Shown here: in pieces, positions 2,720 through 62,752 of the stretch
Numbering within the stretch: the first letter of the stretch is position 1
Layout of the letters: each line of letters starts with the position of its first letter
NCBI GenBank assembly: GCA_046329965.1
Contig: JAXLTR010000005.1
Span: forward strand, 371,385 to 435,384
From: Bacteroidales bacterium
GTDB lineage: Bacteria; Bacteroidota; Bacteroidia; Bacteroidales; NBLH01
Reading direction: 5' to 3'
Length of the DNA: 64,000 bases
Notes under the pieces: generated by a model
Told to the model about the DNA's origin: nothing
Database searches by the model: none
Seen by the model: the letters and a program-made list of their open reading frames with translations, nothing else
Translations under genes and position numbers: made by a program

Positions 2720-3679
2720 TTATTCTTCGATAAATACCGGTGATAATTGTGATTTATAAGTGGTGTCGGTTAATTGTTTTTTCTCTTTGGTTTCCCAGTT
2801 CATGAGTGTGATATGGAATTGACTTTCTTTATTGTCGGAACTGTTAAAAACAAGCCATTTCCCATCGGGACTCCAGTCGTGCCAACCTTCTGAATCCGGA
2901 TTATCGATAAGTTTCCATTGTTTTTTGCCGTCGGGGGTTATGGCAAAAATACTGTGCCGGCCATCCTGCATCGAAACATAGGAAATGAAATTTTCTGTAG
3001 GGTGCCAGCGTGCCGAACCCGCCCTGTAACCGTAATCTTTTGCAGACGGGTTATTTTCAGGATAATGTGTAAGTTGGGTAAGTCTGCTGCCGTCTTCGTT
3101 CATCAGGTACAATTCTTCATGAGTGGCCCTGTCTCTCCTTTTTTTCTTGTAACTGAACACAATTTTTTTTCCATCGGGTGAAAAACAGGGATCACGGAAT
3201 AAGGCTGCGGTATCGTTTGTAATTTGCCTGTAATTGCCTGTTTTTGTGTTAATAATAAAAAACTGAAACCGGACTTCTTTTCCTTTTCTTCCGGCAACTA
3301 CTATTTCTTCACCGTTGTTTCTGCAACTCATCCAGCTGTCTTCTAATTGCAATTGGCTGATTTTCTTTACATTGTTCCCATTGGCGTCCGTTTCGTAAAG
3401 GAAAAAACAGCGGTAACAGGTATCGCGATCACTAATAAAGAACAAACGGTTTTTATAAGCAGTATAAGTCCAGGCCACGTCATCGTTATTGAGAATGTTT
3501 TTCTTTCCCGATCCATCAAAGTTCATTTTTATAATTTCCCAATCGTCTTTGGTGGTATCAGGCAAATGAATGTTGTAGGCGATGCTTAATTTTTTCGTAT
3601 TGCTTTTTATTATTATTTGGGCTGTTCCGACTGAATAGAACAGAAAACAAATTGAAAACAAGGCCAGTATTTTCTTCAT
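2720..3679 (-). CDS. PD40/TolB-like WD40 beta-propeller repeat protein, secreted
   Basis: 319 aa with signal peptide. Repeated SPDGKK/SPDGKWLVF-type PD40 motifs. 4-nt ATGA overlap with the downstream gene. Confidence 0.6.
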   Translation of the reverse strand: MKKILALFSICFLFYSVGTAQIIIKSNTKKLSIAYNIHLPDTTKDDWEIIKMNFDGSGKKNILNNDDVAWTYTAYKNRLFFISDRDTCYRCFFLYETDANGNNVKKISQLQLEDSWMSCRNNGEEIVVAGRKGKEVRFQFFIINTKTGNYRQITNDTAALFRDPCFSPDGKKIVFSYKKKRRDRATHEELYLMNEDGSRLTQLTHYPENNPSAKDYGYRAGSARWHPTENFISYVSMQDGRHSIFAITPDGKKQWKLIDNPDSEGWHDWSPDGKWLVFNSSDNKESQFHITLMNWETKEKKQLTDTTYKSQLSPVFIEE

Positions 3680-4251
3680 GATTTATGTGTTCGTTTATAG
3701 GATATGCTTAAAAGTTCCATTGCACTTTCATTCAGCTGATTTGCTTCTTTAATAATAATCATGTGCGAAATGCGCGGCATTGGGCCTGTAAGTTTTGATT
3801 TTTGAATGCTTTCATTAAATTGTAAATCACCTAAATCAAGCCCCAACCTAATTTCGCCGGGTTTTACATTTATGGCCGCAAATTCCCGGATTGCAGTAAA
3901 TGAGAAATACGTTTTTTTAGGAATTAATTGTGTTCCATTAAAGGATGAAATGATTTTTCCGGAAATAAGGTCAAACAACGGGCGCATTTCAGGGCATTTT
4001 GTAAACTGGTTTTCGATCAGGGCATTTGGATTGTTATAAACAGGATTTCCATTGTTAAGGTAGATTCCGGCAATAAATTGAGACTGCATATGGTTTAATT
4101 TGTGTACCTTTTTTAACCATTCAAGAATTTCGTTACTTTTTTGCATTCCTGTTGCCTTAACGAGTAAGAGCCATTCTTGCAAAGAATTACCCGTAACCGA
4201 TTTTGCAGTTTCAATAAATTCTTTTTCCAATTCTGCTGATGTTTTTGCCAT
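3676..4251 (-). CDS. DUF4287/DUF5655 domain protein
   Basis: 191-aa ORF. N-terminal MAKTSAELEKEFIETAKSVTG segment is typical of DUF4287-family proteins. Function unknown. Confidence 0.5.
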   Translation of the reverse strand: MAKTSAELEKEFIETAKSVTGNSLQEWLLLVKATGMQKSNEILEWLKKVHKLNHMQSQFIAGIYLNNGNPVYNNPNALIENQFTKCPEMRPLFDLISGKIISSFNGTQLIPKKTYFSFTAIREFAAINVKPGEIRLGLDLGDLQFNESIQKSKLTGPMPRISHMIIIKEANQLNESAMELLSISYKRTHKS

Positions 4252-4270
4252 GATTTTAATTTTTACAAAT

Positions 4271-4419
4271 CAACGTCGTTTAGTTAGTAAAACATCTTAT
4301 TTCAATTAATAATTGGTGTATCTATCTTGGTGTATTGGGGATTTTGTGGCCCTATATTATGCCACCAAAACACTAAAACACCAAATTTTCACCAAAAATT
4401 TCTTAACTAAACAGCATTG
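4271..4419 (+). mobile_element. MITE-like element copy A (diverged), 149 bp, flanked by perfect 10-bp direct repeat TTTTACAAAT (4261-4270 and 4420-4429)
   Basis: Termini caacgtcgtttag ... ctaaacagcattg are imperfect 13-bp inverted repeats. The internal hairpin GTGGC-N10-GCCAC and CACCAAA(T) direct repeats are shared with copies B and C. Lies 9 bp upstream of the start codon of the 3676..4251 gene. Confidence 0.65.
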
Positions 4420-4431
4420 TTTTACAAATTC

Positions 4432-5316
4432 TTATTTCTGTGGTTTGAATTCTAAAATTTCATCGCGTTTTGGAGATGAAACGTATTGTTTTTTATTTTT
4501 CCCTTTTTTATCCATTATCCAAATATCAGAATTTTCTGCTACCCTTGTATATGCAATATATTTGCCGTCGGGTGTCCAGCGGGGCCATCGGTTATCCAAT
4601 GTATCAGAAGTTAATTGTTTAATATTACTTCCATCCGTATCCATCATATAAATATCAGCTTTCCCATTTAAAAAATAATGACAAACCAACTTTTTACCGT
4701 CGGGTGAAATATCTAAAGCTCCGTCATTTCCAATTCTGTTCGTTATTCTTGTGTGGTAACTTCCTGATGTATCAGTAACAAATATTTCGCTGTTTGTTAT
4801 ATTATTGGCAGTATCTTTATCCATAAAAGAAGAATAAAATATTCTTACTCCATCGGGATGGAAAGTAGCCGACCCGTCTAACCTGTCGTTGTTTGTTATT
4901 CTGGTCGTTTTTTTTGTGGCCAAGTTGGTTAAATAAATTTCATTTTGTTTGTGATCGGCATTTGAAACATATAAAATACATTTTTCATCCGGAGAGAATG
5001 AAGGTCCGTATTGGTTTATCGTGTCATTGGTTAATCTTTCAGTAGATTTGGTATCCGTATTATACAGAAAAAGATCATATTGTTTGTTAATTAGTTTTGC
5101 AAACAGGATAAACTGCCCGTCCGGACTCCATTTGATTCCGTAATCCACAGGTTTATCATTGGTTATATTAACCGATTCGTTATTGACGGATGAAACATAA
5201 ATATCGGAATTTCCGTTTCTATCAGAAAAAAAGGCATATTCGTATTTGATTGTACCGCAGGATACAAAGAATAAAAATCCTATAACGGACAGATATTCAA
5301 TTCGTTTTTTCAACAT
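4432..5316 (-). CDS. PD40/TolB-like beta-propeller repeat protein, secreted
   Basis: 294 aa with signal peptide. Repeated DISPDGKK / WSPDGQ / WTPDGKY PD40 motifs. Confidence 0.6.
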   Translation of the reverse strand: MLKKRIEYLSVIGFLFFVSCGTIKYEYAFFSDRNGNSDIYVSSVNNESVNITNDKPVDYGIKWSPDGQFILFAKLINKQYDLFLYNTDTKSTERLTNDTINQYGPSFSPDEKCILYVSNADHKQNEIYLTNLATKKTTRITNNDRLDGSATFHPDGVRIFYSSFMDKDTANNITNSEIFVTDTSGSYHTRITNRIGNDGALDISPDGKKLVCHYFLNGKADIYMMDTDGSNIKQLTSDTLDNRWPRWTPDGKYIAYTRVAENSDIWIMDKKGKNKKQYVSSPKRDEILEFKPQK

Positions 5317-5331
5317 TTTACTTTAATTAAA

Positions 5332-5742
5332 TTATCGCCAGGCTCCTAATATAAAGCCTATTAATGTAAAATAAACGGTAATATAACCCCCGTTTATTAA
5401 AATATACTTCCACGAGCGTTGCTCAAACAGGGCTACTACAGCAAATATTAAAGCAGAAAATCCAAATCCGGCAAGAAAACCTGCCATTGCACCCCAACTG
5501 GCAGTGGTTTTATCATCACCCAGAAAAAAAGCAAGGTTGTAACTAATTATAAGAGAAAGAATAAAACTAATACCATACGTTTTAGCCAGGTTAAATTTTT
5601 GTTTTACAATTTCTTCTGTCAAGTTGTTTTCTTTCATCCATGCTTTGTAAAAAAGCAAAGGGGAATACCAGATTGCCCCCACTACCAGGTTGGATGCAGC
5701 GCAAACCAGCACTGCCCAATGATTAATGTACATATTTTCCAT
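5332..5742 (-). CDS. DUF1761 family membrane protein
   Basis: 136 aa with 4 predicted TM segments. Begins MENMYINHWAVLV..GAIWYSPLLF, characteristic of DUF1761. Confidence 0.5.
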   Translation of the reverse strand: MENMYINHWAVLVCAASNLVVGAIWYSPLLFYKAWMKENNLTEEIVKQKFNLAKTYGISFILSLIISYNLAFFLGDDKTTASWGAMAGFLAGFGFSALIFAVVALFEQRSWKYILINGGYITVYFTLIGFILGAWR

Positions 5743-5810
5743 GGTTCTATGATTAAATTTATTTTCAAAAATAGCAGTATATGATAAAGAAATATTGGAA
5801 AAAATTTACC

Positions 5811-6629
5811 TCATCCTACAGCAATATAATTGGTAAATTCACTTTGCATTTTAAGGTACTGATTTGGTGTAAATCCCGAAAACGCTTTGAAATCATTAAT
5901 AAAATGGGCCTGGTCATAATATCCGCTTTCAAATGCAATTTCTGTCCAGTCAGCGAATTTTTTGGCTTCAATTTCCCTTATGGCTTTCTGAAAACGGATA
6001 ATTTTCAAAAACGATTTTGGTGTTAAACCAACATTTTCCCTGAATATTTTGATAAAATGTTTTTGCGAATACCCGACTTTACCTGATAAATGGCTGATTG
6101 ATAGCTGATGAGGGTTTTTTAAAATCAGGTTTACCGAGTAGTCTATAAACGGATTTAGAACCAATTTGCCGGCAAAAGATTTTGTAAGATATTTTTCAGC
6201 AAACTGAAACTTTTGCTGAGCTGTTGAACATTCAAGTAAAGTTTCGCGCATGTTCAGAATTTCATTCGACATCACCAGTTCACCGTCCACGACAAAATCA
6301 GTGAGTTCGTTCATGGGCATTTCCACAAAGGGATAAGCTTTGCCTTTTTGAAAATAGATAATGAACATCTCGCTGTCGCGTCCCGAAGGAATAGTAATAT
6401 ATTTTTCACGAATTCCTGAAAACCAGACATTTCTGCACGACTGGATTTCTTTTAAAGAGTTGTTGTCGTAAATGTATTTGGGGTAATCGGTAAGGTCAAA
6501 AACAACATAGGTATATCCGTCAGGCAAAAACCGGTCTACCGAATGTTCGGGGTTATATCCTTTATAATAAACAAAATGCTCAATAAAATGATTAAGAGGT
6601 GGCGCCGGTATGTAATTTTCGAATATCAA
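5811..6629 (-). CDS. AraC family transcriptional regulator
   Basis: 272 aa. C-terminal HTH_AraC signature (HFIKIFRENVGLTPKSFLKIIRFQKAIREIE ... YDQAHFINDFKAFSGFTP). Confidence 0.75.
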   Translation of the reverse strand: MIFENYIPAPPLNHFIEHFVYYKGYNPEHSVDRFLPDGYTYVVFDLTDYPKYIYDNNSLKEIQSCRNVWFSGIREKYITIPSGRDSEMFIIYFQKGKAYPFVEMPMNELTDFVVDGELVMSNEILNMRETLLECSTAQQKFQFAEKYLTKSFAGKLVLNPFIDYSVNLILKNPHQLSISHLSGKVGYSQKHFIKIFRENVGLTPKSFLKIIRFQKAIREIEAKKFADWTEIAFESGYYDQAHFINDFKAFSGFTPNQYLKMQSEFTNYIAVG

Positions 6630-6691
6630 ATATCAGTTAATTGTTTGGTTATAAATTTAAAGATACTAAAAATACTATTAATACTTCCCAT

Positions 6692-8257
6692 TCAAGGCCG
6701 GTTATTCTTCAAACACCTGACAGATAAGAATAATTCTTTTAGGATTGCAGTTAACCCGGCTCCCTTATAATTTAAAGTTTCGGTCGGACGGTAAACATTT
6801 AAATACCAAGCGGTATTTTTAACTACAACATTGTCGTCAGATTCAGTCCAAAAACAGGCAAGAGTATTTAATCCAGATATTATGTCTACTATGACATACC
6901 CTGCAAACCGAACTGAAAATTGAGAGAGCCCCCCTTCATTAAGGACTTCAAATAATTCAGCCTGGTTGGATATCCCACCCAACTGGTCTAATAGTAACTG
7001 AAAATCTGATTTCGCAGGTAATTTCCAGCCTGGTGGACAAACCTGTTGGGCTGTTTCCCAGTTATACCAATACCCATATTTCTTTAAATCATCAGGATTT
7101 TTAGATTTAACCCAGCCATTTGTGCTCTGGTAAGCCAGATTTTCAGCCATCCATACCTGACCACCAATTTTTACCACTTTGTATTGCTTTCCATCCCGAG
7201 GGTCGATTAATTTTTCATTAAGAATTGTCCCTTTCCTGCTTTTGGCCATTAAATTTGTGAACCGGTTTTGAATGATGACAAAATTTTTACGAAATGGTTC
7301 AGAACCCCTTATTTCAAGGATATGTTTCCCCGGAGCCAAATTATTTATGGTCAGTGTCCGTTTTTCATCAGTAACATCCCCATGTTTTATACTGTCAATG
7401 AAAACCTCCCCTGTTATTTCAGATTCAAATTTTAAACCCATGGTTGACTTTTCAGTATTATCATAAATGTTCCCCTGCTGGTTTTCGATTTCATTACTGA
7501 TTACAGAAGCTGATTTTTTAGTGAAGTAAAATTCCCCTGTCAGTTTGGTCCATTCCTGTGGACTTTGGTTTCCCCCACTGGCTTTTTGCACATCCACACG
7601 GGTATTTTTAAAAACTGTTTCAATGGGGATAGGTTTTGAAAGGTGTTTCACCAGTTTTTCGGTGAAAAGCCCGTTGCTCCCTTCGCCATCACTGGCGGTG
7701 GCCCCTTCGCTGGTGGCAAAAGCTATAATAGTGCCACTTCCCGGGTTCATGGCCTTAAATCCCCTTGCCCCACTCCTTGCCCACGAACGGAATGGGTTAT
7801 TCCGGCAGGCATCCAGTATAACGATATTTGTATTTTGAGGATATTCTTCAAATTTTGATACCACTTCATTTACCGAAATAGCCTCAAAACTTACCATGTC
7901 CTGGGTATTCATGGTGGCATCAACCGGTATAAGGTAATTTACCCCGTTTACCTGTACACCGTGCCCTGCATAGAAAAACAAAGCCACATTGTAATTGCCA
8001 AGCTTGGACCAGAAATCGGTAATGGCTTGGGCCATTTGGGTCCGATTGGCATTTATCTTTTTAATTACTGTAAATCCAAGGCCCTGAAGGGTGGAAGCCA
8101 TCAGGTTGGCATCGTTCACCGGATTTTTAAGGGGTGCGTTATTATAGGTGTTGTTTCCAATAATTAAAGCAATGCGTTTTTCAATATTTTGGGAAAAACT
8201 ACTGATAATTATAAAAAAAAATACTGATAAACTAACAAATTTTTTCATTCCACTCAA
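6692..8257 (-). CDS. secreted caspase-family (peptidase C14) protein fused to a C-terminal Fibrobacter-succinogenes-major-paralogous (FISUMP) domain
   Basis: 521 aa with signal peptide. Caspase His/Cys dyad context FFYAGHGVQ ... IVILDACRNNPF. C-terminal KIGGQVWMAENLAY ... YNWETA ... CPPGWKLP motif typical of the TIGR02145-type FISUMP domain. Confidence 0.7.
   Translation of the reverse strand: MSGMKKFVSLSVFFFIIISSFSQNIEKRIALIIGNNTYNNAPLKNPVNDANLMASTLQGLGFTVIKKINANRTQMAQAITDFWSKLGNYNVALFFYAGHGVQVNGVNYLIPVDATMNTQDMVSFEAISVNEVVSKFEEYPQNTNIVILDACRNNPFRSWARSGARGFKAMNPGSGTIIAFATSEGATASDGEGSNGLFTEKLVKHLSKPIPIETVFKNTRVDVQKASGGNQSPQEWTKLTGEFYFTKKSASVISNEIENQQGNIYDNTEKSTMGLKFESEITGEVFIDSIKHGDVTDEKRTLTINNLAPGKHILEIRGSEPFRKNFVIIQNRFTNLMAKSRKGTILNEKLIDPRDGKQYKVVKIGGQVWMAENLAYQSTNGWVKSKNPDDLKKYGYWYNWETAQQVCPPGWKLPAKSDFQLLLDQLGGISNQAELFEVLNEGGLSQFSVRFAGYVIVDIISGLNTLACFWTESDDNVVVKNTAWYLNVYRPTETLNYKGAGLTAILKELFLSVRCLKNNRP
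7530..8257. repeat. duplicated ~730-bp segment (caspase-domain coding region), copy 1 of 2
   Basis: Roughly 90% nucleotide identity to 9030..9756 by direct comparison. Identity drops abruptly upstream of 7530/9030. Confidence 0.8.
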
Positions 8258-8259
8258 TT

Positions 8260-9756
8260 TTATTCAATTTTTATACATCGGACTGATAATCCACAATCGT
8301 TCCTGTTTTTTTCAATTGCCATTTTCAATTTCAGATTGGTAATGCCAAAATAAAAAACGAGCTGATTCTGATCACTAGAGGCAGTCCAATATGCCTCTTC
8401 GTCATTAAGATACATATAAGCCCCGGATAAAGGTATTTTGAAACCAGCAAATGAAGGAGAAAAACTCGCTCCTTTTCCATTGACCAAGGAGTTATATCTT
8501 TCTTCAGAAGTATTGCCTAGATAATTAAATAATTTTTGCACATCTTCCTTCGAGGGAAGTTTCCATCCAGGAGGACATACAGTTTTTGCCGATTCCCAGT
8601 CATATAAGTAGCCATAATTTTCAATATTTTTCGAATCATCATCGTATACCCAACATCCTTTTTCAAGTTTTAGTGCCATGTTTTGGGTCATCCATACCTG
8701 GTCCCCTATTTTTGCATAGGAATAGGTTTTGTTATTTCGTCTGTCATATAAAACTGAATTCAGGTTATCAAATGAAAAATTTGTTGTTTTCCCCTCTGCT
8801 ACATAGATTTCTCCAGTTTTTTTATCTTCTCCTTCAAGGACGATCGAATGTTTGCCAACAGGGATATCCTTAAATATATTTCCTTTTGATTTTGAAGCCA
8901 GGAATCCAATTTTATTTCCATCAATGTAGAGAAAACCTCTCGTTTCACTGTCGATTGAAATGTTGCCGTATTTTGTCATTTCATTATCAGTCGTCTCCGT
9001 ATTCACTTGAATTTTTGATTTTACGAAAAAAAATTCCCCTGTCAGCTTGGTCCATTCCTGCGGACTTTGGTTTCCCCCACTGGCTTTTTGCACATCCACA
9101 CGGGTATTTTTAAAAACCGTTTCAATAGGAATTGGTTTTGAAATATGTTTTACAAGCTTTTCGGTAAATAACCCGTTATTCCCTTCGCCATCACTCGCAG
9201 TAGCCCCTTCGCTGGTTGCAAAGGCTATGATTGTCCCGCTTCCCGGGTTCATGGCCTTAAATCCACTGGCCCCGCCTCTTGCCCACGAGCGGAAAGGGTT
9301 ATTACGGCAGGCATCTAATATAACAATATTTGTATTTTGTGGATATTCTTCGAATTTAGATACTACCTCATTCACCGATATAGCCTCAAAGCTTACCATG
9401 TCCTGGGTATTCATGGTAGCATCAACCGGGATCAGGTAATTTACCCCGTTTACCTGTACTCCATGGCCTGCAAAGAAAAACAAAGCCACGTCGTAATTAC
9501 TCAGCTTGGACCAAAAATCGGCAATGGCCTGGGCCATTTGTACCCTGTTGGCATTCACTTTTTTAATCACTGTAAAACCAAGCCCCTGCAAGGTAGTAGC
9601 CATCAGGTTAGCATCATTCACCGGGTTTTTAAGGGGTGCGTTACTATAGCTGTTGTTTCCTATAATCAGGGCAATACGTTTATCATTGGTTTGGGATATC
9701 ATTGTATTTGCAAAATGTATTATTAATAGGGAACAAATAAACTTCTTCATATTCAA
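8260..9756 (-). CDS. secreted caspase-family (peptidase C14) protein with C-terminal FISUMP domain; tandem paralog of 6692..8257
   Basis: 498 aa with signal peptide. Same caspase block (FFFAGHGVQ, IVILDACRNNPF). C-terminal KIGDQVWMTQNMAL ... YDWESA ... CPPGWKLP. Confidence 0.7.
   Translation of the reverse strand: MNMKKFICSLLIIHFANTMISQTNDKRIALIIGNNSYSNAPLKNPVNDANLMATTLQGLGFTVIKKVNANRVQMAQAIADFWSKLSNYDVALFFFAGHGVQVNGVNYLIPVDATMNTQDMVSFEAISVNEVVSKFEEYPQNTNIVILDACRNNPFRSWARGGASGFKAMNPGSGTIIAFATSEGATASDGEGNNGLFTEKLVKHISKPIPIETVFKNTRVDVQKASGGNQSPQEWTKLTGEFFFVKSKIQVNTETTDNEMTKYGNISIDSETRGFLYIDGNKIGFLASKSKGNIFKDIPVGKHSIVLEGEDKKTGEIYVAEGKTTNFSFDNLNSVLYDRRNNKTYSYAKIGDQVWMTQNMALKLEKGCWVYDDDSKNIENYGYLYDWESAKTVCPPGWKLPSKEDVQKLFNYLGNTSEERYNSLVNGKGASFSPSFAGFKIPLSGAYMYLNDEEAYWTASSDQNQLVFYFGITNLKLKMAIEKNRNDCGLSVRCIKIE
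9030..9756. repeat. duplicated ~730-bp segment (caspase-domain coding region), copy 2 of 2
   Basis: Roughly 90% nucleotide identity to 7530..8257. Confidence 0.8.
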
Positions 9757-10435: not shown

Positions 10436-11203
10436 CTACTTTGAAATATCCAGAAAATTATCCTGTATTCTTTCCTTCCATTTTTTGTATTCGCGTTGTA
10501 AAAGCAGTCTGTTAATTTCTCTTCCGTGCGATGGAAGAAATATATTACATTTTGTTTCAAGCAGTTTTCCCCAACTTTCAACCATTAAGGCAACATCATT
10601 CGCAAATGGAGGAAAAACAGAACCGCTAAAAACGCCAAACATGGCATCGCCGACAAGGGCTATTTCATCATCAACAATTAAACTCATCGAACCCGTAGTG
10701 TGGCCTGGGGTGTGGATTAAACAGGCTTTAATTCCAAATTCTTTTAGATCATAAATTTCATCCAGGAGTAAATCCGGAATGCAAGGTTCGTAATTAAATT
10801 TTGGCGAAAGTTTTTTACCTACAAATTTCATCAATGGTTTGGTAAAAAATGTCGTCCCGTTTGGTAAAATATTCTCTCCTGCAGTCAGATAACCGGCTTC
10901 GTTTTTATGGATAATTACAGGAATTTTATATTTCTCTTTTACTTTATTTGCATTGGCTGCATGGTCAAAATGAGCATGGGTTAAAATCAGGCAGTCGATG
11001 TTTTTTAACGAAAGTTTGACAATTTGCTTTTGTAACTTTGCCCAAAGTCGCGAAACTGAGGCATCAACCATTAAATTATTTATTCCGTTTGACACTATAA
11101 AAACATTGCATCTCCCTGATAAAACACGGATTATTTCATAACCATTTTTAGTTTTCCATTTTTTCAATTTAAAACAGGTTTTTATTTTAGGATTCAATGT
11201 CAT
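10436..11203 (-). CDS. MBL-fold metallo-hydrolase
   Basis: 255 aa with HxHxDH motif (LTHAHFDHAAN). The predicted ATG (11201-11203) lies inside the terminal repeat of MITE copy B, so the true start is uncertain. Confidence 0.7.
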   Translation of the reverse strand: MTLNPKIKTCFKLKKWKTKNGYEIIRVLSGRCNVFIVSNGINNLMVDASVSRLWAKLQKQIVKLSLKNIDCLILTHAHFDHAANANKVKEKYKIPVIIHKNEAGYLTAGENILPNGTTFFTKPLMKFVGKKLSPKFNYEPCIPDLLLDEIYDLKEFGIKACLIHTPGHTTGSMSLIVDDEIALVGDAMFGVFSGSVFPPFANDVALMVESWGKLLETKCNIFLPSHGREINRLLLQREYKKWKERIQDNFLDISK

Positions 11204-11348
11204 TTAGATAATGATTTTTTTCGTGGAAGTTGGTGTCTTTGTGTTTTAGTGGCGAAAACACTTTTGCCACCAAATCACCAAATCACAAAATCTCACCAAA
11301 TCTTCAATAAATTGATATTTTATATTTGTCATTAACTAAACAACATTG
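11195..11348 (+). mobile_element. MITE-like element copy B, 154 bp, 13-bp TIRs (caatgtcatttag / ctaaacaacattg), 10-bp flanking direct repeat TTTTAGGATT / TTTTAAGATT (9 of 10)
   Basis: About 93% identical to copy C over the full length. Contains hairpin GTGGC-gaaaacactttt-GCCAC and CACCAAAT direct repeats. Overlaps the first three codons of the MBL hydrolase ORF. Confidence 0.8.
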
Positions 11349-11405
11349 TTTTAAGATTTCAAAATAATTGTTTACAGTTGGTTTTATATAGTTCAACCCT
11401 AGAAA

Positions 11406-12596
11406 CTAACGGCCAAATTCTTTTTCAATCAAATTCACAGTTAGTTCCACGCCGTTTACATTTTTAAGTTTTTGTGCCATTTCAACAGCATTTTTCTTAT
11501 AGGTTTCATTGTTTATACATTCCATAATGGCATTAGAAATGGCCCGGGTACTGATTTTTTTAAAATTGCAGGTTTTGGGGCCAAGGTTTAGTTTCACTAT
11601 CTGGTCACGGTTCATAAACTGGTCGCCCATAAAAGGAAAGGCAGCATGCGGAACACCGGCCCTTGCCACTGCCGACATGGTTCCGGTTCCACCATGGTAC
11701 ACTACTGCCACCAATCGCGGAAAGAGCAGCTCAAAAGGCATGTCGTCAACATATAAAATATTTTCATTATTATTTTCGGGCAAATTGGCCCATCCTTTCG
11801 ATACAATTAAGCGTTGTTGGGTTGTTTGTTGCACTTCTATAAAAATCTGGCCGTATTTTTCGGGACCTGTAATGGGGTTGCTTCCAAATCCAATATAAAC
11901 AGGTGGTTTTCCGGAATTAATGAAATTTTCAACCCCATCAGGCAGCTGGTTTTTCGATGGTAAAATCATGTAGGCCGTCTGTGTAAATGAAAAAGCAACT
12001 TCTTTACGGGCTTCAACAAGTTCCCTGTCACAGGCCATTATAACATTATCGCCCAGCCAATGGTGCCAGGCATCCTTAATGGGAGGAAGCTGGTATTTTG
12101 CCCTGTTTTTATTGATAAATCCCCTTATAAACAGGTTTATCATCTTTCGTCCAAAAGCAAACATCATCCTGTTTTTTAACGGGTCTTCAGGAGTGGTTCC
12201 CAGCAGAATAGGATAAAAAGCCACAAGCCGGTATGGAACTTTTAAAATATCTGCAGCTGTTTGTACCCCCATCACTATGCCTGTTGCCAATACCAGGTCA
12301 ACCGGTTTTATCAGTTCCGGTAAAATATTAATTTGATCCCCTATCAATTTCTTCCCCTGTTTTGGTGAAATTTTTACAGCCACCCCACCTTTCTGCTTTT
12401 GAGGGTTTTCGTTTATCTGTTTTTTAATTTCGGGGCCGAATTTAATAAACCTGCAATTGTTGGTTACTACAAGTTGTTCATTTTCAGGAGGGGCGCAAAT
12501 TACTACATCGTGTCCATTTCCGGTAAGGCCTTTAGCAAGGGCCACCATAGGCTGAACATCGCCGCGTGTGCCGAGAATTACAATGGCTATTTTCAT
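11406..12596 (-). CDS. glycosyltransferase family 1 (MGT/UDP-glucuronosyl-transferase-like)
   Basis: 396 aa. N-terminal MKIAIVILGTRGDVQPMVALAKGL (GT1 N-domain). C-terminal HGGTGT ... donor-binding block. Confidence 0.65.
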   Translation of the reverse strand: MKIAIVILGTRGDVQPMVALAKGLTGNGHDVVICAPPENEQLVVTNNCRFIKFGPEIKKQINENPQKQKGGVAVKISPKQGKKLIGDQINILPELIKPVDLVLATGIVMGVQTAADILKVPYRLVAFYPILLGTTPEDPLKNRMMFAFGRKMINLFIRGFINKNRAKYQLPPIKDAWHHWLGDNVIMACDRELVEARKEVAFSFTQTAYMILPSKNQLPDGVENFINSGKPPVYIGFGSNPITGPEKYGQIFIEVQQTTQQRLIVSKGWANLPENNNENILYVDDMPFELLFPRLVAVVYHGGTGTMSAVARAGVPHAAFPFMGDQFMNRDQIVKLNLGPKTCNFKKISTRAISNAIMECINNETYKKNAVEMAQKLKNVNGVELTVNLIEKEFGR

Positions 12597-58032: not shown

Positions 58033-58899
58033 TTAGAATTTTAGGTTTTCAATATCATCTCTGGTCAATCCGGTTAATTTAATAATTAAGTCTGATGGCA
58101 AGCCTTCTTTTAATCCTGTCCTTGCAATTTCAATCTTTTCCTCAATTTTTCCTTCCATCTTCCCTTCTTCTCTAGCCGTTTCCAAAGAATTTTTAATATC
58201 CCTGTAGTATTTTAAGCTATCTTCATATTCCTGGTATTCTGTTTGGCTGAATTTAGCAATTTCAGCAGTTTCAAACAGTTTCAGGAAAATGTTTTCTTTA
58301 AGTTTTTCAGGAATCCTATCAAGCTTATGAAGGTTTTTTAAAATGAACAACCATTTATCAAATTTTGTTTCAAGCTCTTCTGCCGATTTATTGAACTTAG
58401 GCATTTCTAAATAAATAAAAGTCAGCTTATCGTAAAATATCTTTTTTGTCTGGATGTCAGAGAGTTTAACATCATATCTCAGTTTTTCGGGCTGGTTCTC
58501 ATCTTCGTCGAAAATAAAGTCAAGTATTGCAATAGTGTAAACTTTTTTCAGTTCAAAATTCCATTCACTGCCAATTACAGCCTGTTCTCTGATTGGAAAT
58601 GTTGAGTAGTATACAGTTCTGTCCTTAAAGAATTTCTGCTTTGTTTTTTGTAATTCAACTATAAATTTTTCGCCCCGTTCGTTTGTGCAATAAAGATCAA
58701 AAATGGCTTTCCTATTCAATTCTGTGGTGGAAAGGTTTTCGTTTTTTAAATAAGTTAATTCAGTTATTTCACCTTGTTCCTGTCTGAGCAATTCATTCAG
58801 AAAGTCAAGCAGAAGGTCTTTGTTTGGCTCTTCACCAAATAGCCGCTTAAATCCGTAGTCAGTAAAAGGGTTTATAAATTTTTCCCTGAATTCGTACAT
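58033..58899 (-). CDS. PD-(D/E)XK nuclease family (Rpn/YhgA-like) putative transposase
   Basis: 288 aa. N-terminal PFTDYGFKRLFGEEPNKDLLLDFLNELL typical of the Rpn/PDDEXK_7 family that is abundant in Bacteroidota. Confidence 0.7.
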   Translation of the reverse strand: MYEFREKFINPFTDYGFKRLFGEEPNKDLLLDFLNELLRQEQGEITELTYLKNENLSTTELNRKAIFDLYCTNERGEKFIVELQKTKQKFFKDRTVYYSTFPIREQAVIGSEWNFELKKVYTIAILDFIFDEDENQPEKLRYDVKLSDIQTKKIFYDKLTFIYLEMPKFNKSAEELETKFDKWLFILKNLHKLDRIPEKLKENIFLKLFETAEIAKFSQTEYQEYEDSLKYYRDIKNSLETAREEGKMEGKIEEKIEIARTGLKEGLPSDLIIKLTGLTRDDIENLKF

Positions 58900-59040: not shown

Positions 59041-59583
59041 CTACTGGTATCTGAAATGAATTCCGATTATCCAAAGGGCCTTTATTTTTAATAAAAACAG
59101 GAATAAAACAATAAAAACAGTGCCTGCGAGTGCCAGGAAGTTTAAAAATTTCTGTGCCCTGTAACCATTGCGAAAAGCTTTTTCAATACCCATGTATACC
59201 AATAATCCAATTAAACCGCCAGCCGTATTGTTAATAATATCGGTTATATCAGCGGCCCCAACGCTTAAAATAAACTGGATAATTTCTATTGACAAACTGG
59301 TTAAAAAAAACAGGGGAATTTTTTTCCAAATAGTCCATTTTTTAAATAAAATTCCTGCATATACGCCCAGAGGTATAAAAATCAATGCATTTAAAACCAT
59401 TTCCATACTATTTGGTTTACCATTTTGATCGGTAGATTCGGCAAACGGAATAAGGTTTATCATTCTTTTGTCCATATACGAAAAGTGGACATCGAGTTTT
59501 AATATCAGTACCCAAACCAATACCAACAAATAAATGACGAATAATACGTTGGTTAATCTGTTTGCCTTATCATTTTCTTTCAT
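59041..59583 (-). CDS. VanZ-family membrane protein
   Basis: 180 aa. 4-5 TM. VanZ-like pattern (LNALIFIPLGVY ... ADITDIINNTAGGLIG). Confidence 0.6.
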   Translation of the reverse strand: MKENDKANRLTNVLFVIYLLVLVWVLILKLDVHFSYMDKRMINLIPFAESTDQNGKPNSMEMVLNALIFIPLGVYAGILFKKWTIWKKIPLFFLTSLSIEIIQFILSVGAADITDIINNTAGGLIGLLVYMGIEKAFRNGYRAQKFLNFLALAGTVFIVLFLFLLKIKALWIIGIHFRYQ

Positions 59584-59635
59584 AGCGTTACGCTGGAATT
59601 GTAATATTTTTCGGTGAAAATAGAAAATTAAATGG

Positions 59636-59789
59636 TAATGTCGTTTAGATAAGGATTTTTTTCGTGCAAGTTGGTGTCTTTGTGTTTTAGTGGCAGTAAC
59701 ACTTTTGCCACCAAATCACCAAATCACAAAATCTCACCAAATCTTCTATAAATTGATATTTTATATTTGTCATTAACTAAACGACATTT
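59636..59789 (+). mobile_element. MITE-like element copy C, 154 bp, 13-bp TIRs (taatgtcgtttag / ctaaacgacattt; inner 12 bp perfect), perfect 10-bp target-site duplication AATTAAATGG (59626-59635 and 59790-59799)
   Basis: Coordinates derived directly from the sequence. About 93% identical to copy B. Internal hairpin GTGGC-agtaacactttt-GCCAC. CACCAAAT direct repeats. TATATTTG motif near the right end. Confidence 0.85.
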
Positions 59790-59933
59790 AATTAAATGGC
59801 ATTTTGTATTTTCAAAAAGTGAAATCTCAGGATTATTTAAAAGAAGGCTACTCTTGTATGAAAAAAACATTATATCTTTATTTGAATCAGGATTTAAATC
59901 ATTTTTTAAAATTTTATTACCTATTGGGTTTAC

Positions 59934-60431
59934 ATGTTGAAAGAGGATTTTATATCATTTCCAAATGCAGAGGGTTTTCCTGCAGGGCCTTACGACCTGG
60001 ATGGCATATCTTTCGTAACAAGTGAGGATAACGCATTTGAAATACTTGTTCAGCTGGGATTTGTGTATGACATTTACCTGTTGCGGATTATATCTGCAGA
60101 TACGACATCCTGGGAGCTCTGGCACAAAGATTCTGCTGTAGTTTTTGTAGATGAGAAAAAGGTTGCAGACAATCCTGTTTTTAATTACAGTAATTTTACA
60201 TTAAGCTGCGATTTCCAGCTACGGGTAAACCTTTCTGATAGGGCGATAGAAGGGAGGGCAATCAATGTAACCTTTCTTCAGGCAATCCCCGAAATTTCGT
60301 TTATGATTGAATTTAAGCTGGAATCAGGAATTAAAGTTGGTCTTTGCGGCCAGGGCTGGAGAGAGATAAATTATACGACATCAGATGATTCCTGGCCTTC
60401 GGAGGAGTGGAAGGATTGGAATACCATGTAA
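59934..60431 (+). CDS. hypothetical protein
   Basis: 165-aa ORF with no recognisable motif. Lies between the VanZ gene / MITE and the Zn-ribbon gene. Confidence 0.3.
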   Translation: MLKEDFISFPNAEGFPAGPYDLDGISFVTSEDNAFEILVQLGFVYDIYLLRIISADTTSWELWHKDSAVVFVDEKKVADNPVFNYSNFTLSCDFQLRVNLSDRAIEGRAINVTFLQAIPEISFMIEFKLESGIKVGLCGQGWREINYTTSDDSWPSEEWKDWNTM

Positions 60432-60961: not shown

Positions 60962-62752
60962 ATGATGTTTTACCCTTTAATTGAATCTGTTCCGGAATTT
61001 AAAGCCCGGCTGCTGATGGATAGCAATCATCTCTACCGGAAGCCCTTGTTTATGGAAATGATTATTGATAAAACTGAAAAGCGTATTTATCTAAAACAAT
61101 CTTATAACAAACTTATTTGGACCGAATTGCATGGAATAACCAAATCGTGGTGGCAAAAAGAGAAGAGACAATGGGTATTTGCCGGGAACAATGAGAATTA
61201 CCTGGCAATAAAAGCCATTGCAAAAAAATATGGATGTGTTTTAAACCAGGAATTTGCAAAAACAGTTGACGAAAGGGAATCAAATCCAAGGGTTAAAAGG
61301 TATATTGAAACAATGCAGATAAGAAAGTACAGCATCAATACCATTGAAGCCTATCTGCCATATTTCAGACAATTCGTCAGTCATTTTAAAGATACTGATA
61401 TTGATGATCTTGGCTATAGGGAAATTTCGCGTTACATTGAAAGCGAACAAAGGTTTTGTGAAAGTGATACAGGCATGCGTCACATGATTTGTGCCATTAA
61501 ATACTACTACGAAAATATCCTCGGAAGAGATCGGATGGTATTTAAGCTGCGCGAAACAAGAAATATAAAAAATACCGGCATGGTATTGCCTGTTGATAAG
61601 CTGATGTTACTTTTAAACAAAATAATAAACCCGGAGCATAAAATATTGCTTTTTCTTAAATTCAGCCAGGGGATGAGCGAAAATGAAATTGCAGGCATTA
61701 CGCTTCTGAAAATAAAAGAATGGCTTACCGAAAAAGTGTTTAAACAGTATCCCAACGAAAAAGCCCGGATTATTTCTATGGTAAAGAAATATTATGAGCA
61801 TTGCCGCCCGGCAGTATATCTTTTTGAGAAAACAGGATCGACCATGTATTTGCCCGAAGAAATTGGAGACAAGTTAAATGAAGCAATCAGGGAAAATGAT
61901 TTTTCAGAACCTTATAAAATCAGTTTACAGGAACTTTTATCCGGTGCCGGATTTAAATTAAAAACGATAAATTGTTATTGCAATTCACTCATTCAGTTTA
62001 TAAAAGCCTTTAATTTTAAGAATTTAGAAGATATCAGTAACGAGGAAATCCGCATGTTTTTGCATCGTTTGAGCAAGAACAACAGCATTTCGACGAGTAC
62101 GATTAATCAGTACATTAATGTGCTTAAGTTTTATTATATAGATGTATTAAAGCGCGACATCCCATTTCATTATATTTTCAGGCCAAAATCGCCGATCAGG
62201 TTACCAAAGGTTCTGAATCCCGATCAGATAGGAGCGATTATCAACAGCATCGGCAATATAAAGCATAAATGCATTATTGCAATTGAGTATTCGGCAGGAC
62301 TGAGGATAAGTGAAGTACTTGATTTGAAAGTAGATCAGATAGACTATAAAAAAGGTGAAATTTTCATATTTGCCAGGAAAGGAAAAAAAGAAAGAATTAG
62401 TTTGCTGGCAGACAACCTGAAAGAGTGGCTGGCAGAATATATAGAAGAGTACAGGCCGCGTGATTATTTGTTTGAAGGAGCCACAGGAGGGCGTTATAGT
62501 GAGACAAGTGTGGGCAATATATTGAAAAGGGCCATGAAACTAGCCGGGATTACTAAAAAGGCCACCAACCATTGGCTCAGGCACTCGTTTGCAACCGACT
62601 TACTGGAGCACGGAACCGACATAAGGTATATACAGGATTTGCTGGGCCACAAGGACATAAAAACAACACTTCGGTATGCCCATGTTTCAGATAATAAGCG
62701 GCGTACAATAAAGAGCCCATTAGACAGGATAAAAATTATGAAGAAAAATTAA
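60962..62752 (+). CDS. tyrosine-type site-specific recombinase/integrase with two tandem N-terminal SAM-like core-binding domains
   Basis: 596 aa. Catalytic domain with R (LRISEVLDL), HxLRH (HWLRHSFAT) and Y (LRYAHV). Two separate core-binding-like segments (NTIEAYLPYFRQFVSHF... and INCYCNSLIQFIKAF...). Confidence 0.8.
   Translation: MMFYPLIESVPEFKARLLMDSNHLYRKPLFMEMIIDKTEKRIYLKQSYNKLIWTELHGITKSWWQKEKRQWVFAGNNENYLAIKAIAKKYGCVLNQEFAKTVDERESNPRVKRYIETMQIRKYSINTIEAYLPYFRQFVSHFKDTDIDDLGYREISRYIESEQRFCESDTGMRHMICAIKYYYENILGRDRMVFKLRETRNIKNTGMVLPVDKLMLLLNKIINPEHKILLFLKFSQGMSENEIAGITLLKIKEWLTEKVFKQYPNEKARIISMVKKYYEHCRPAVYLFEKTGSTMYLPEEIGDKLNEAIRENDFSEPYKISLQELLSGAGFKLKTINCYCNSLIQFIKAFNFKNLEDISNEEIRMFLHRLSKNNSISTSTINQYINVLKFYYIDVLKRDIPFHYIFRPKSPIRLPKVLNPDQIGAIINSIGNIKHKCIIAIEYSAGLRISEVLDLKVDQIDYKKGEIFIFARKGKKERISLLADNLKEWLAEYIEEYRPRDYLFEGATGGRYSETSVGNILKRAMKLAGITKKATNHWLRHSFATDLLEHGTDIRYIQDLLGHKDIKTTLRYAHVSDNKRRTIKSPLDRIKIMKKN

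Follow-up and report, generated by a model that had tools for sequence, protein, structure and literature searches.

The IS4 family of insertion sequences (ISs) includes IS231 of Bacillus cereus, whose ends are also found on MIC231, non-autonomous cassettes that are moved in trans by the IS231A transposase. MIC231 duplications measure about 10-12 bp, and these cassettes are larger than the elements described here and often carry passenger genes. In Porphyromonas gingivalis, the miniature inverted-repeat transposable elements (abbreviated MITEs) BrickBuilt, MITE239, MITE464 and MITE700 have terminal inverted repeats (TIRs) of the sequence GAGACC(T/A)TTGCA or ACGTCAGTTCGA, which are common to ISPg1, ISPg3 and ISPg4, of IS5 type (PMC4596501), and MITECca01 of Cardinium matches the IS982-family element ISCca4 (PMC9769881). 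In a large survey made automatically, 81,380 unique MITEs are listed for Bacteroidota, the families of which are not characterized. In the IS4 family, target-site duplications (TSDs) are about 10 bp long (PMC2266710; De Palmenaer, Siguier & Mahillon 2008), and members of the IS4 subgroup measure 1400-1650 bp, with ends of the form -AATR--------WTW---- and direct repeats of 10-13 bp (Table 1, PMC2266710). Here, we describe three short elements, copies A, B and C, in a 64-kb stretch of contig JAXLTR010000005.1 from a Bacteroidales bacterium (referred to as the window), and argue that they are very probably non-autonomous MITEs, the approximately 18-bp ends of which are the TIRs of a clade of IS4-family ISs, that they belong to a Bacteroidota-wide superfamily and that they are moved in trans by the transposase of that clade.

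Statements about copy number and about the absence of a partner IS in the source genome refer to the 64-kb window. The elements and their flanks, as read from the sequence, are as follows.

4261-4270, no strand: left TSD of copy A, TTTTACAAAT, identical to the right one
4271-4419, no strand (orientation relative to B and C ambiguous): copy A, a diverged MITE of 149 bp, same superfamily
4420-4429, no strand: right TSD of copy A, TTTTACAAAT
11185-11194, no strand: left TSD of copy B, TTTTAGGATT
11195-11348, plus strand: copy B, a MITE of 154 bp with a long, imperfect fold of hairpin type (z = -4.8 to -5.4)
11349-11358, no strand: right TSD of copy B, TTTTAAGATT, 9/10 match to the left one
59626-59635, no strand: left TSD of copy C, AATTAAATGG, identical to 59790-59799
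59636-59789, plus strand: copy C, a MITE of 154 bp, intergenic
59636-59655, plus strand: left TIR of copy C, TAATGTCGTTTAGATAAGGA, 21/21 identical to the end of the full-length IS at locus L230
59770-59789, minus strand: right TIR of copy C, reverse complement AAATGTCGTTTAGTTAATGA
59790-59799, no strand: right TSD of copy C, AATTAAATGG

The three elements are bounded by CAACGTCGTTTAG ... CTAAACAGCATTG (copy A), CAATGTCATTTAG ... CTAAACAACATTG (copy B) and TAATGTCGTTTAG ... CTAAACGACATTT (copy C), and each is directly abutted by a 10-bp direct repeat, which matches at 10/10 positions in A, 9/10 in B and 10/10 in C. A preliminary description of this stretch had given the same coordinates, strings and three-copy layout with 10-bp duplications, all of which were confirmed on reading the sequence. 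It had set the TIRs at 13 bp; near-perfect repeats of 12-13 bp are indeed present, but the pairing actually reaches about 18-20 bp, and in each of the window copies 16-17 of 20 positions are paired. Its value of about 93% identity between B and C was reproduced (93% ungapped over 159 nt; 94.7% over 152 nt by BLAST), although, with about 5% of positions differing, the term ‘recently mobilized’ applies to these two copies in a relative sense only. Copy A is diverged, as had been stated, being about 75% identical to B and C and only over 70-95 nt. It aligns to both of them either way round and its orientation is ambiguous, because the element is a long imperfect palindrome. All copies fold into a stable hairpin, with z-scores of -3.8 to -5.4 relative to shuffled sequences. 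In line with the preliminary description, no transposase is encoded within the elements or elsewhere in the window, and the interiors have no similarity to transposase genes. No copies beyond A, B and C were found in the window, and an Rfam scan of the whole window at the gathering threshold matched no family. A short-read (Logan) contig from the same organism breaks off within copy C, as is typical of repeats. The interiors of copies B (11259-11304) and C (59700-59745) contain CACCAAAT repeats.

The same pair of ends is found far beyond the window. A scan of one genome per species, in which both ends were required with a gap of 110-140 nt between them, returned at least 115 loci, nearly all of them in Bacteroidota and including hosts from the Bacteroidales, Chitinophagaceae, Cytophagales, Saprospiraceae, Draconibacterium and others. 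Their consensus ends are CAATGTCGTTTAGTTAAG...CTTAACTAAACGACATTG, and the consensus over 121 elements is CAATGTCGTTTAGTT...AACTAAACGACATTG. The elements are short (136-166 bp) and non-coding, and between lineages their interiors are unrelated, only the terminal 20-30 bp being common. Among the 119 elements with enough flanking sequence, the flanking 10-mers match at 10/10 positions in 55 and at 9/10 in 25, so that 80/119 match at 9/10 or better, compared with a mode of 3/10 in a control offset by 10 bp; this pattern of duplication is far beyond chance. When perfect abutting repeats of any length from 7 to 13 were allowed, the length was exactly 10 in 55/56.

Within individual genomes the short form has been amplified. 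An 18-copy cluster with 85-100% identity, each copy with a duplication of its own, is present in a Draconibacterium metagenome-assembled genome (MAG), and clusters of 7, 5 and 5 copies were found in other genomes. A record of one insertion comes from locus L064 (a Marinoscillum MAG, 5669-6659), a tandem array of units of about 197 bp, one of which holds a MITE. A neighbouring unit with no element reads ...gatttaata GTTTGGGTAT tattagc..., with a single 10-mer, whereas in the filled unit the sequence is ...gatttaata TTTTGGGTAA-[element]-GTTTGGGTAT tattagc.... The neighbouring unit is thus a paralogous empty site, and the insertion was precise and accompanied by a 10-bp duplication.

Several further features of the family deserve mention. 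At L056 (6049-7256, Draconibacterium MAG JADIYN01), four copies with 95-99% identity lie within 1.2 kb and lack individual target duplications; the right flank TGAATGGGAA is common to the three downstream copies and the left flanks are near-identical in 3/4, which looks like segmental or tandem duplication of a MITE-bearing unit. MITE interiors often contain 7-8-bp tandem repeats with inverted copies on the opposite arm (L001, L005, L010 and L036 were examined; other genomes show GGTCATT- or TTCACAA-type repeats), and some contain GC-rich palindromes of the type GCTCAGGGTGAC..GTCAGGCTGAGC. One perfect 18-bp end, CAATGTCGTTTAGTTAAG, is located on a viral contig (L119, 10958-10975; IMG/VR contig UViG_3300050121_000298). 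This end, in a phage or prophage, is an orphan: in the viral contig scan, made with a 17-mer end, the surrounding DNA contained no partner end, no transposase and no IS.

The insertion sites themselves show a target preference. A logo of 80 reconstructed sites is symmetric, with A(0.76) W T(0.82), a spacer of four unspecified positions (N4) and A(0.72) W T(0.70), and with outliers, likewise symmetric, at T(-4) and A(+15); this symmetry would be predicted of a DDE enzyme that acts as a dimer. In addition, the sites have a strong 7-bp periodicity: identity is 0.404 at lag 7 and 0.398 at lag 14, whereas positions drawn at random from the same loci give 0.265 at lag 7. Near-perfect heptamer tandem tracts (lag-7 identity of at least 0.7) are found at 9/80 sites compared with 1/1600 control windows; examples are (ATTCTTA)n, (ATTGTTA)n, (AATTATC)n and (AATCAnn)n, and the loci with such tracts include L023, L105, L001, L035, L036, L087, L110, L245 and others, one IS copy among them. 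On the simplest reading, AWT at a 7-bp spacing provides many overlapping preferred targets, hence the enrichment in tracts. The preference for AWT-N4-AWT, together with this enrichment, is open to biochemical testing.

The ends resemble those of classical IS4 relatives. IS4 of E. coli K-12 (4502090-4503515) has the ends TAATGCCGATCAGTTAAG and TAATGCCAGTCAGTTAAG and a 12-bp duplication, and further ISs with related ends are as follows.

Ralstonia IS: end TAATGCCGTTCAGTTAAG, duplication not identified
E. coli plasmid IS: end CAATGCCGATCAGTTAAG, duplication of 11 bp
Chondrinema litorale IS (Bacteroidota): end CAATGCTATTAAGTTAAG, duplication of 10 bp
ISPa1635: end CAATGTCATCAAC.., duplication not identified

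The MITE consensus end is identical to that of E. coli IS4 at 14/18 positions and to those of the Ralstonia and E. coli plasmid ISs at 15/18 each, and the variant end TAATGCCGTTTAGTTAA, found at L007, L035 and L069, matches the Ralstonia IS at 17/18, with one position differing. In CAATGTCGTTTAGTTAAG, positions 2-5 read AATG and positions 14-16 read TTA, in agreement with the IS4-subgroup signature; the same end also fits the looser IS4Sa signature CA------T, so that the subgroup cannot be assigned from the signature alone. A tblastn search of E. coli InsG against plasmids gave no Bacteroidota among the matches listed, and a homologue search with InsG gave only close enterobacterial relatives among the matches listed. 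Conservation of IS4-type terminal sequences extends from E. coli IS4 to elements of the Bacteroidota.

Full-length ISs with the same ends were found in metagenome contigs. In the IS4-type references, the stop codon of the transposase gene is located inside the right TIR, 9-13 bp from the end, and the codons for R-W-x-I-E, which belongs to the YREK motif, lie 405-412 bp from the end. The search pattern accordingly consisted of the end, a gap of 350-410 and the reverse complement of R-W-x-I/V-E, and was validated on the ISs from Ralstonia and from the E. coli plasmid. It returned at least 120 loci, in 93 of which both ends, CAATGTCGTTTAGTTAAG...CTTAACTAAACGACATTG, are present 1.34-1.49 kb apart. 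Among those with flanking sequence, perfect 10-bp duplications bound 16/75 ISs, 10 more have repeats matching at 8-9/10 positions and several have duplications of 11-12 bp. The DNA is mostly of low GC content (0.31-0.45), and the open reading frames (ORFs), of about 370-450 aa when intact, stop 13-22 bp from the right end and have a common ...MNYKxL C-terminus. All of the 40 long ORFs compared match InsG (40/40), mostly at 23-27% identity with E values of about 1e-13 to 1e-16. Three representative proteins match Pfam DDE_Tnp_1 (PF01609) and score 142-161 bits against NCBIfam NF033592 ‘IS4 family transposase’ (cut-off 115), a model that E. coli InsG and its relatives also match. The expected motifs are present as D (VDGS), D (DRGY) and Y-2-R-3-E-6-K (YHMRWGIEEAYKLLK). 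The protein family has 2194 homologues at E <= 1e-10, and relatives in Saprospiraceae MAGs and in Belliella are named ‘IS4 family transposase’ by NCBI. In a plasmid collection, the nearest annotated relatives, ISPa1635 and IS4-family ISs of Skermanella and Chondrinema litorale, are 30-39% identical at the amino-acid level, the closest named IS being ISPa1635 at about 36%. One assembly has an identical 1479-bp IS at two loci, with duplications of 10/10 and 8/10, which points to an active multi-copy element. At six loci on short metagenome contigs (L129, L180, L195, L200, L207 and L243), the 12-bp flanks of the full-length IS are reverse complements rather than direct repeats, which could be due to palindromic targets or to assembly artefacts at a repeat.

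The link between the MITEs and the IS4 family is drawn because the same ends bound both elements of 136-166 bp and ISs of 1.34-1.49 kb that encode an IS4-family DDE/YREK transposase, with 10-bp duplications in both cases, and the short elements are read as MITEs because they have been amplified as such within genomes, at unrelated sites, and because the insertion at L064 was precise. The term MITE-like used in the preliminary description therefore fits in all its parts (short, non-coding, bounded by TIRs and 10-bp TSDs, dispersed at unrelated sites and amplified within genomes), and the flanking 10-mers proved to be duplicated when more copies were examined. Of the candidate partner classes it had named, the first, IS4, is the one borne out by the end signature, the TIR matches and the full-length ISs encoding IS4-family transposases. 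A 10-bp duplication, which it had considered unusual, is instead the norm for this family (about 10 bp; 10-13 bp in the subgroup; PMC2266710), and its alternative of an ordinary promoter with no mobility signature is contradicted by the TSD statistics.

The biochemistry of IS4-family transposition is established for Tn5 and IS10, and transposition of the present elements may follow the same steps. By analogy, a transposase dimer, supplied in trans, would bind both 18-bp ends, and the element would be excised by a cut-and-paste reaction through hairpin intermediates. Its 3' ends would then be joined to target phosphates staggered by 10 bp, with symmetric AWT-N4-AWT sites preferred, and repair of the gaps would leave the 10-bp target duplication. 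In the interior no sequence is conserved across lineages, only the tendency to form a long hairpin, and it therefore seems to serve as cargo or spacer and not as a functional module.

A number of observations weigh against this account. Neither the window nor the at least 115 MITE-bearing genome loci yielded a partner IS, so that mobilization in trans within the source genome itself is a proposal. Similarly, no transposase was found beside MITEs or orphan ends in these loci, the orphan end at L067 adjoining an MBL-fold gene instead. As the 64 kb contain no partner transposase, the window copies are dormant unless a transposase from another part of the genome serves them. For the ISs sampled, MITE and IS resemble each other over no more than their terminal 20-30 bp (maximum 58). 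The short elements are accordingly ‘ends-only’ MITEs, and the similarity is not evidence for internal deletion of a specific parent IS. The length range of the MITEs is partly set by the search pattern itself (gap 110-140). The partner transposases match only PF01609 and not Nterm_IS4 (Pfam PF13006), which InsG relatives carry, and this, together with an identity to InsG of only 23-27%, makes the placement in the subgroup less firm than that in the family. Finally, no orthologous empty site was found for the three window copies, because every tested window protein is a singleton at 90% identity.

Three other explanations were weighed. The elements might be remnants of full-length IS4-family ISs that were deleted in situ and never mobilized as short units, in which case the ends would be identical to those of full-length ISs, as they are, and the TSDs would date from the first insertion of the IS; moreover, no partner lies nearby. 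We consider this very unlikely: copies B and C have an interior in common that is about 95% identical and unrelated to the IS at two loci with different TSDs, and other genomes contain up to 18 near-identical short copies at different sites. The same interior at the same length at many sites does not arise from independent deletions, and the interiors lack similarity to transposase genes. Even less credible is mobilization by an enzyme outside the IS4 family, such as the Rpn-family PD-(D/E)XK nuclease encoded next to copy C (PDDEXK_2, 58033-58899) or a repetitive extragenic palindromic (REP)/RAYT-type system, which the palindromic nature of the elements might recall. In full-length elements that share exactly these ends, the only product encoded is an IS4-family DDE transposase, the ends are identical at 14-17/18 positions to the TIRs of classical IS4 relatives, and no Rpn gene is located near copies A and B. 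REP/RAYT elements are palindromes of about 20-40 bp with a GTAG head, often clustered, that are not known to produce a target duplication, RAYT being a Y1 transposase. The fixed 10-bp duplication, the 150-bp length and the 18-bp TIRs in common with DDE ISs set the present elements apart from them.

The third explanation concerns the genomic setting of the copies, all of which are intergenic and located 19-52 bp upstream of minus-strand genes. The neighbouring genes are listed below.

3676-4251, minus strand: DUF5655/DUF4287 gene, next to copy A
4432-5316, minus strand: PD40 beta-propeller gene, next to copy A
10436-~11176/11203, minus strand: MBL-fold hydrolase gene, next to copy B
11406-12596, minus strand: glycosyltransferase gene, next to copy B
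59041-59583, minus strand: VanZ gene, next to copy C
59934-60431, plus strand: hypothetical gene, next to copy C

This position, together with the stable hairpins (z = -3.8 to -5.4), would suit a conserved host regulatory element that is not mobile (a promoter, a leader, or a terminator, riboswitch or other structured RNA), an explanation to which we give almost no credence, as the downstream genes are unrelated (DUF5655, MBL-fold hydrolase, VanZ), there is no Rfam match at the gathering threshold, the interiors vary between lineages while the ends and 10-bp duplications persist, transposase-encoding ISs are bounded by the same ends and a paralogous empty site exists (L064). The lack of any relationship among the genes adjoining the different copies speaks against a dedicated cis-regulatory RNA, and a riboswitch or leader was rejected on the same ground. 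As for a promoter of the Bacteroidetes type (TTTG / TAnnTTTG), no perfect -7 box was seen in copies B and C in an inspection by eye only.

Other features of the window are noted for completeness. The left TIR of copy B (11195-11207) supplies an in-frame ATG (CTAAATGACATTG, minus strand) to the MBL-fold ORF (10436-11203, minus strand), which is thereby extended by about 9 codons. In the pre-insertion sequence, a TGA stop lay just upstream of this gene, and its native start is for this reason probably the TTG at about 11176. The Rpn-family PD-(D/E)XK gene mentioned above (58033-58899, minus strand; ‘recombination-promoting nuclease/putative transposase’) is located about 700 bp from copy C and, with a gene for a tyrosine recombinase of 596 aa (60962-62752, plus strand), brackets the copy C region; the two genes may lie at the border of a further mobile element. 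A 300-nt direct repeat with 88% identity (7523-7822 and 9025-9324) lies within the adjacent minus-strand ORFs 6692-8257 and 8260-9756, which are apparently tandem paralogous genes.

A broader proposal can be made, which we regard as speculative and rather unlikely to hold as a whole. According to it, the family would be a phylum-wide superfamily of ‘TIR-only’ MITEs, born repeatedly from unrelated hairpin filler of about 140-160 bp, the IS4-family transposase would have an unusual liking for intergenic heptamer tracts with AWT at a 7-bp spacing, and the copies, landing systematically beside gene starts, could act as lineage-specific regulatory hairpins.

What has been described is a new, well-supported family of ordinary mobile DNA, and the understanding of transposition is unchanged by it. 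A full-text search of the searchable literature returned no paper for either TIR string; copies of the family may well already be in automated MITE catalogues of the kind cited above. Its ends, CAATGTCGTTTAGTTAAG, and its 10-bp duplication provide an annotation rule for an abundant, unannotated repeat of Bacteroidota genomes and MAGs, which breaks short-read assemblies and is now tied to an identifiable IS4-family partner.

Among known systems, one of the closest to the elements and their partners is the IS4 subgroup. Its end signature is present, 14-17/18 terminal bases are identical and the duplication falls within 10-13 bp; the partner ISs, at 1.34-1.49 kb, are close in size to 1400-1650 bp, their stop codon, 13-22 bp from the right end, is close to the 9-13 bp of the references, and their transposase has the DDE and YREK motifs and the same NF033592 match. 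In contrast to members of the subgroup, the window elements do not encode a transposase. The transposases of the Bacteroidota partners also differ from that of E. coli IS4, being 23-27% identical to InsG and lacking an Nterm_IS4 match, and the E. coli IS4 duplication is 11-13 bp long, whereas that of the present elements is predominantly exactly 10 bp. Related ends are found in ISPa1635 of Pseudomonas (CAATGTCATCAAC..), a Skermanella IS (CAATGTTATCAAGTTAG) and the Chondrinema litorale IS (CAATGCTATTAAGTTAAG), the last with a duplication of 10 bp; these differ at terminal positions 6-13 and are autonomous elements of 1.5-1.6 kb, for which no MITE partner is described in the accessible literature. 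In concept, the closest precedent is MIC231 with IS231, which likewise combines IS4-family ends without a transposase and mobilization in trans. The IS231 end signature is CAT-------AA--TAA--- (Table 1, PMC2266710), from which the present ends depart with A at position 3 and TA at positions 11-12, and the host phylum is different. The MITEs of Porphyromonas and Cardinium, lastly, have duplications of 2-9 bp or none and no sequence relation to the present ends, but resemble the family described here in being short, non-coding, TIR-bounded, multi-copy and mostly intergenic, and in having only their ends in common with resident ISs.

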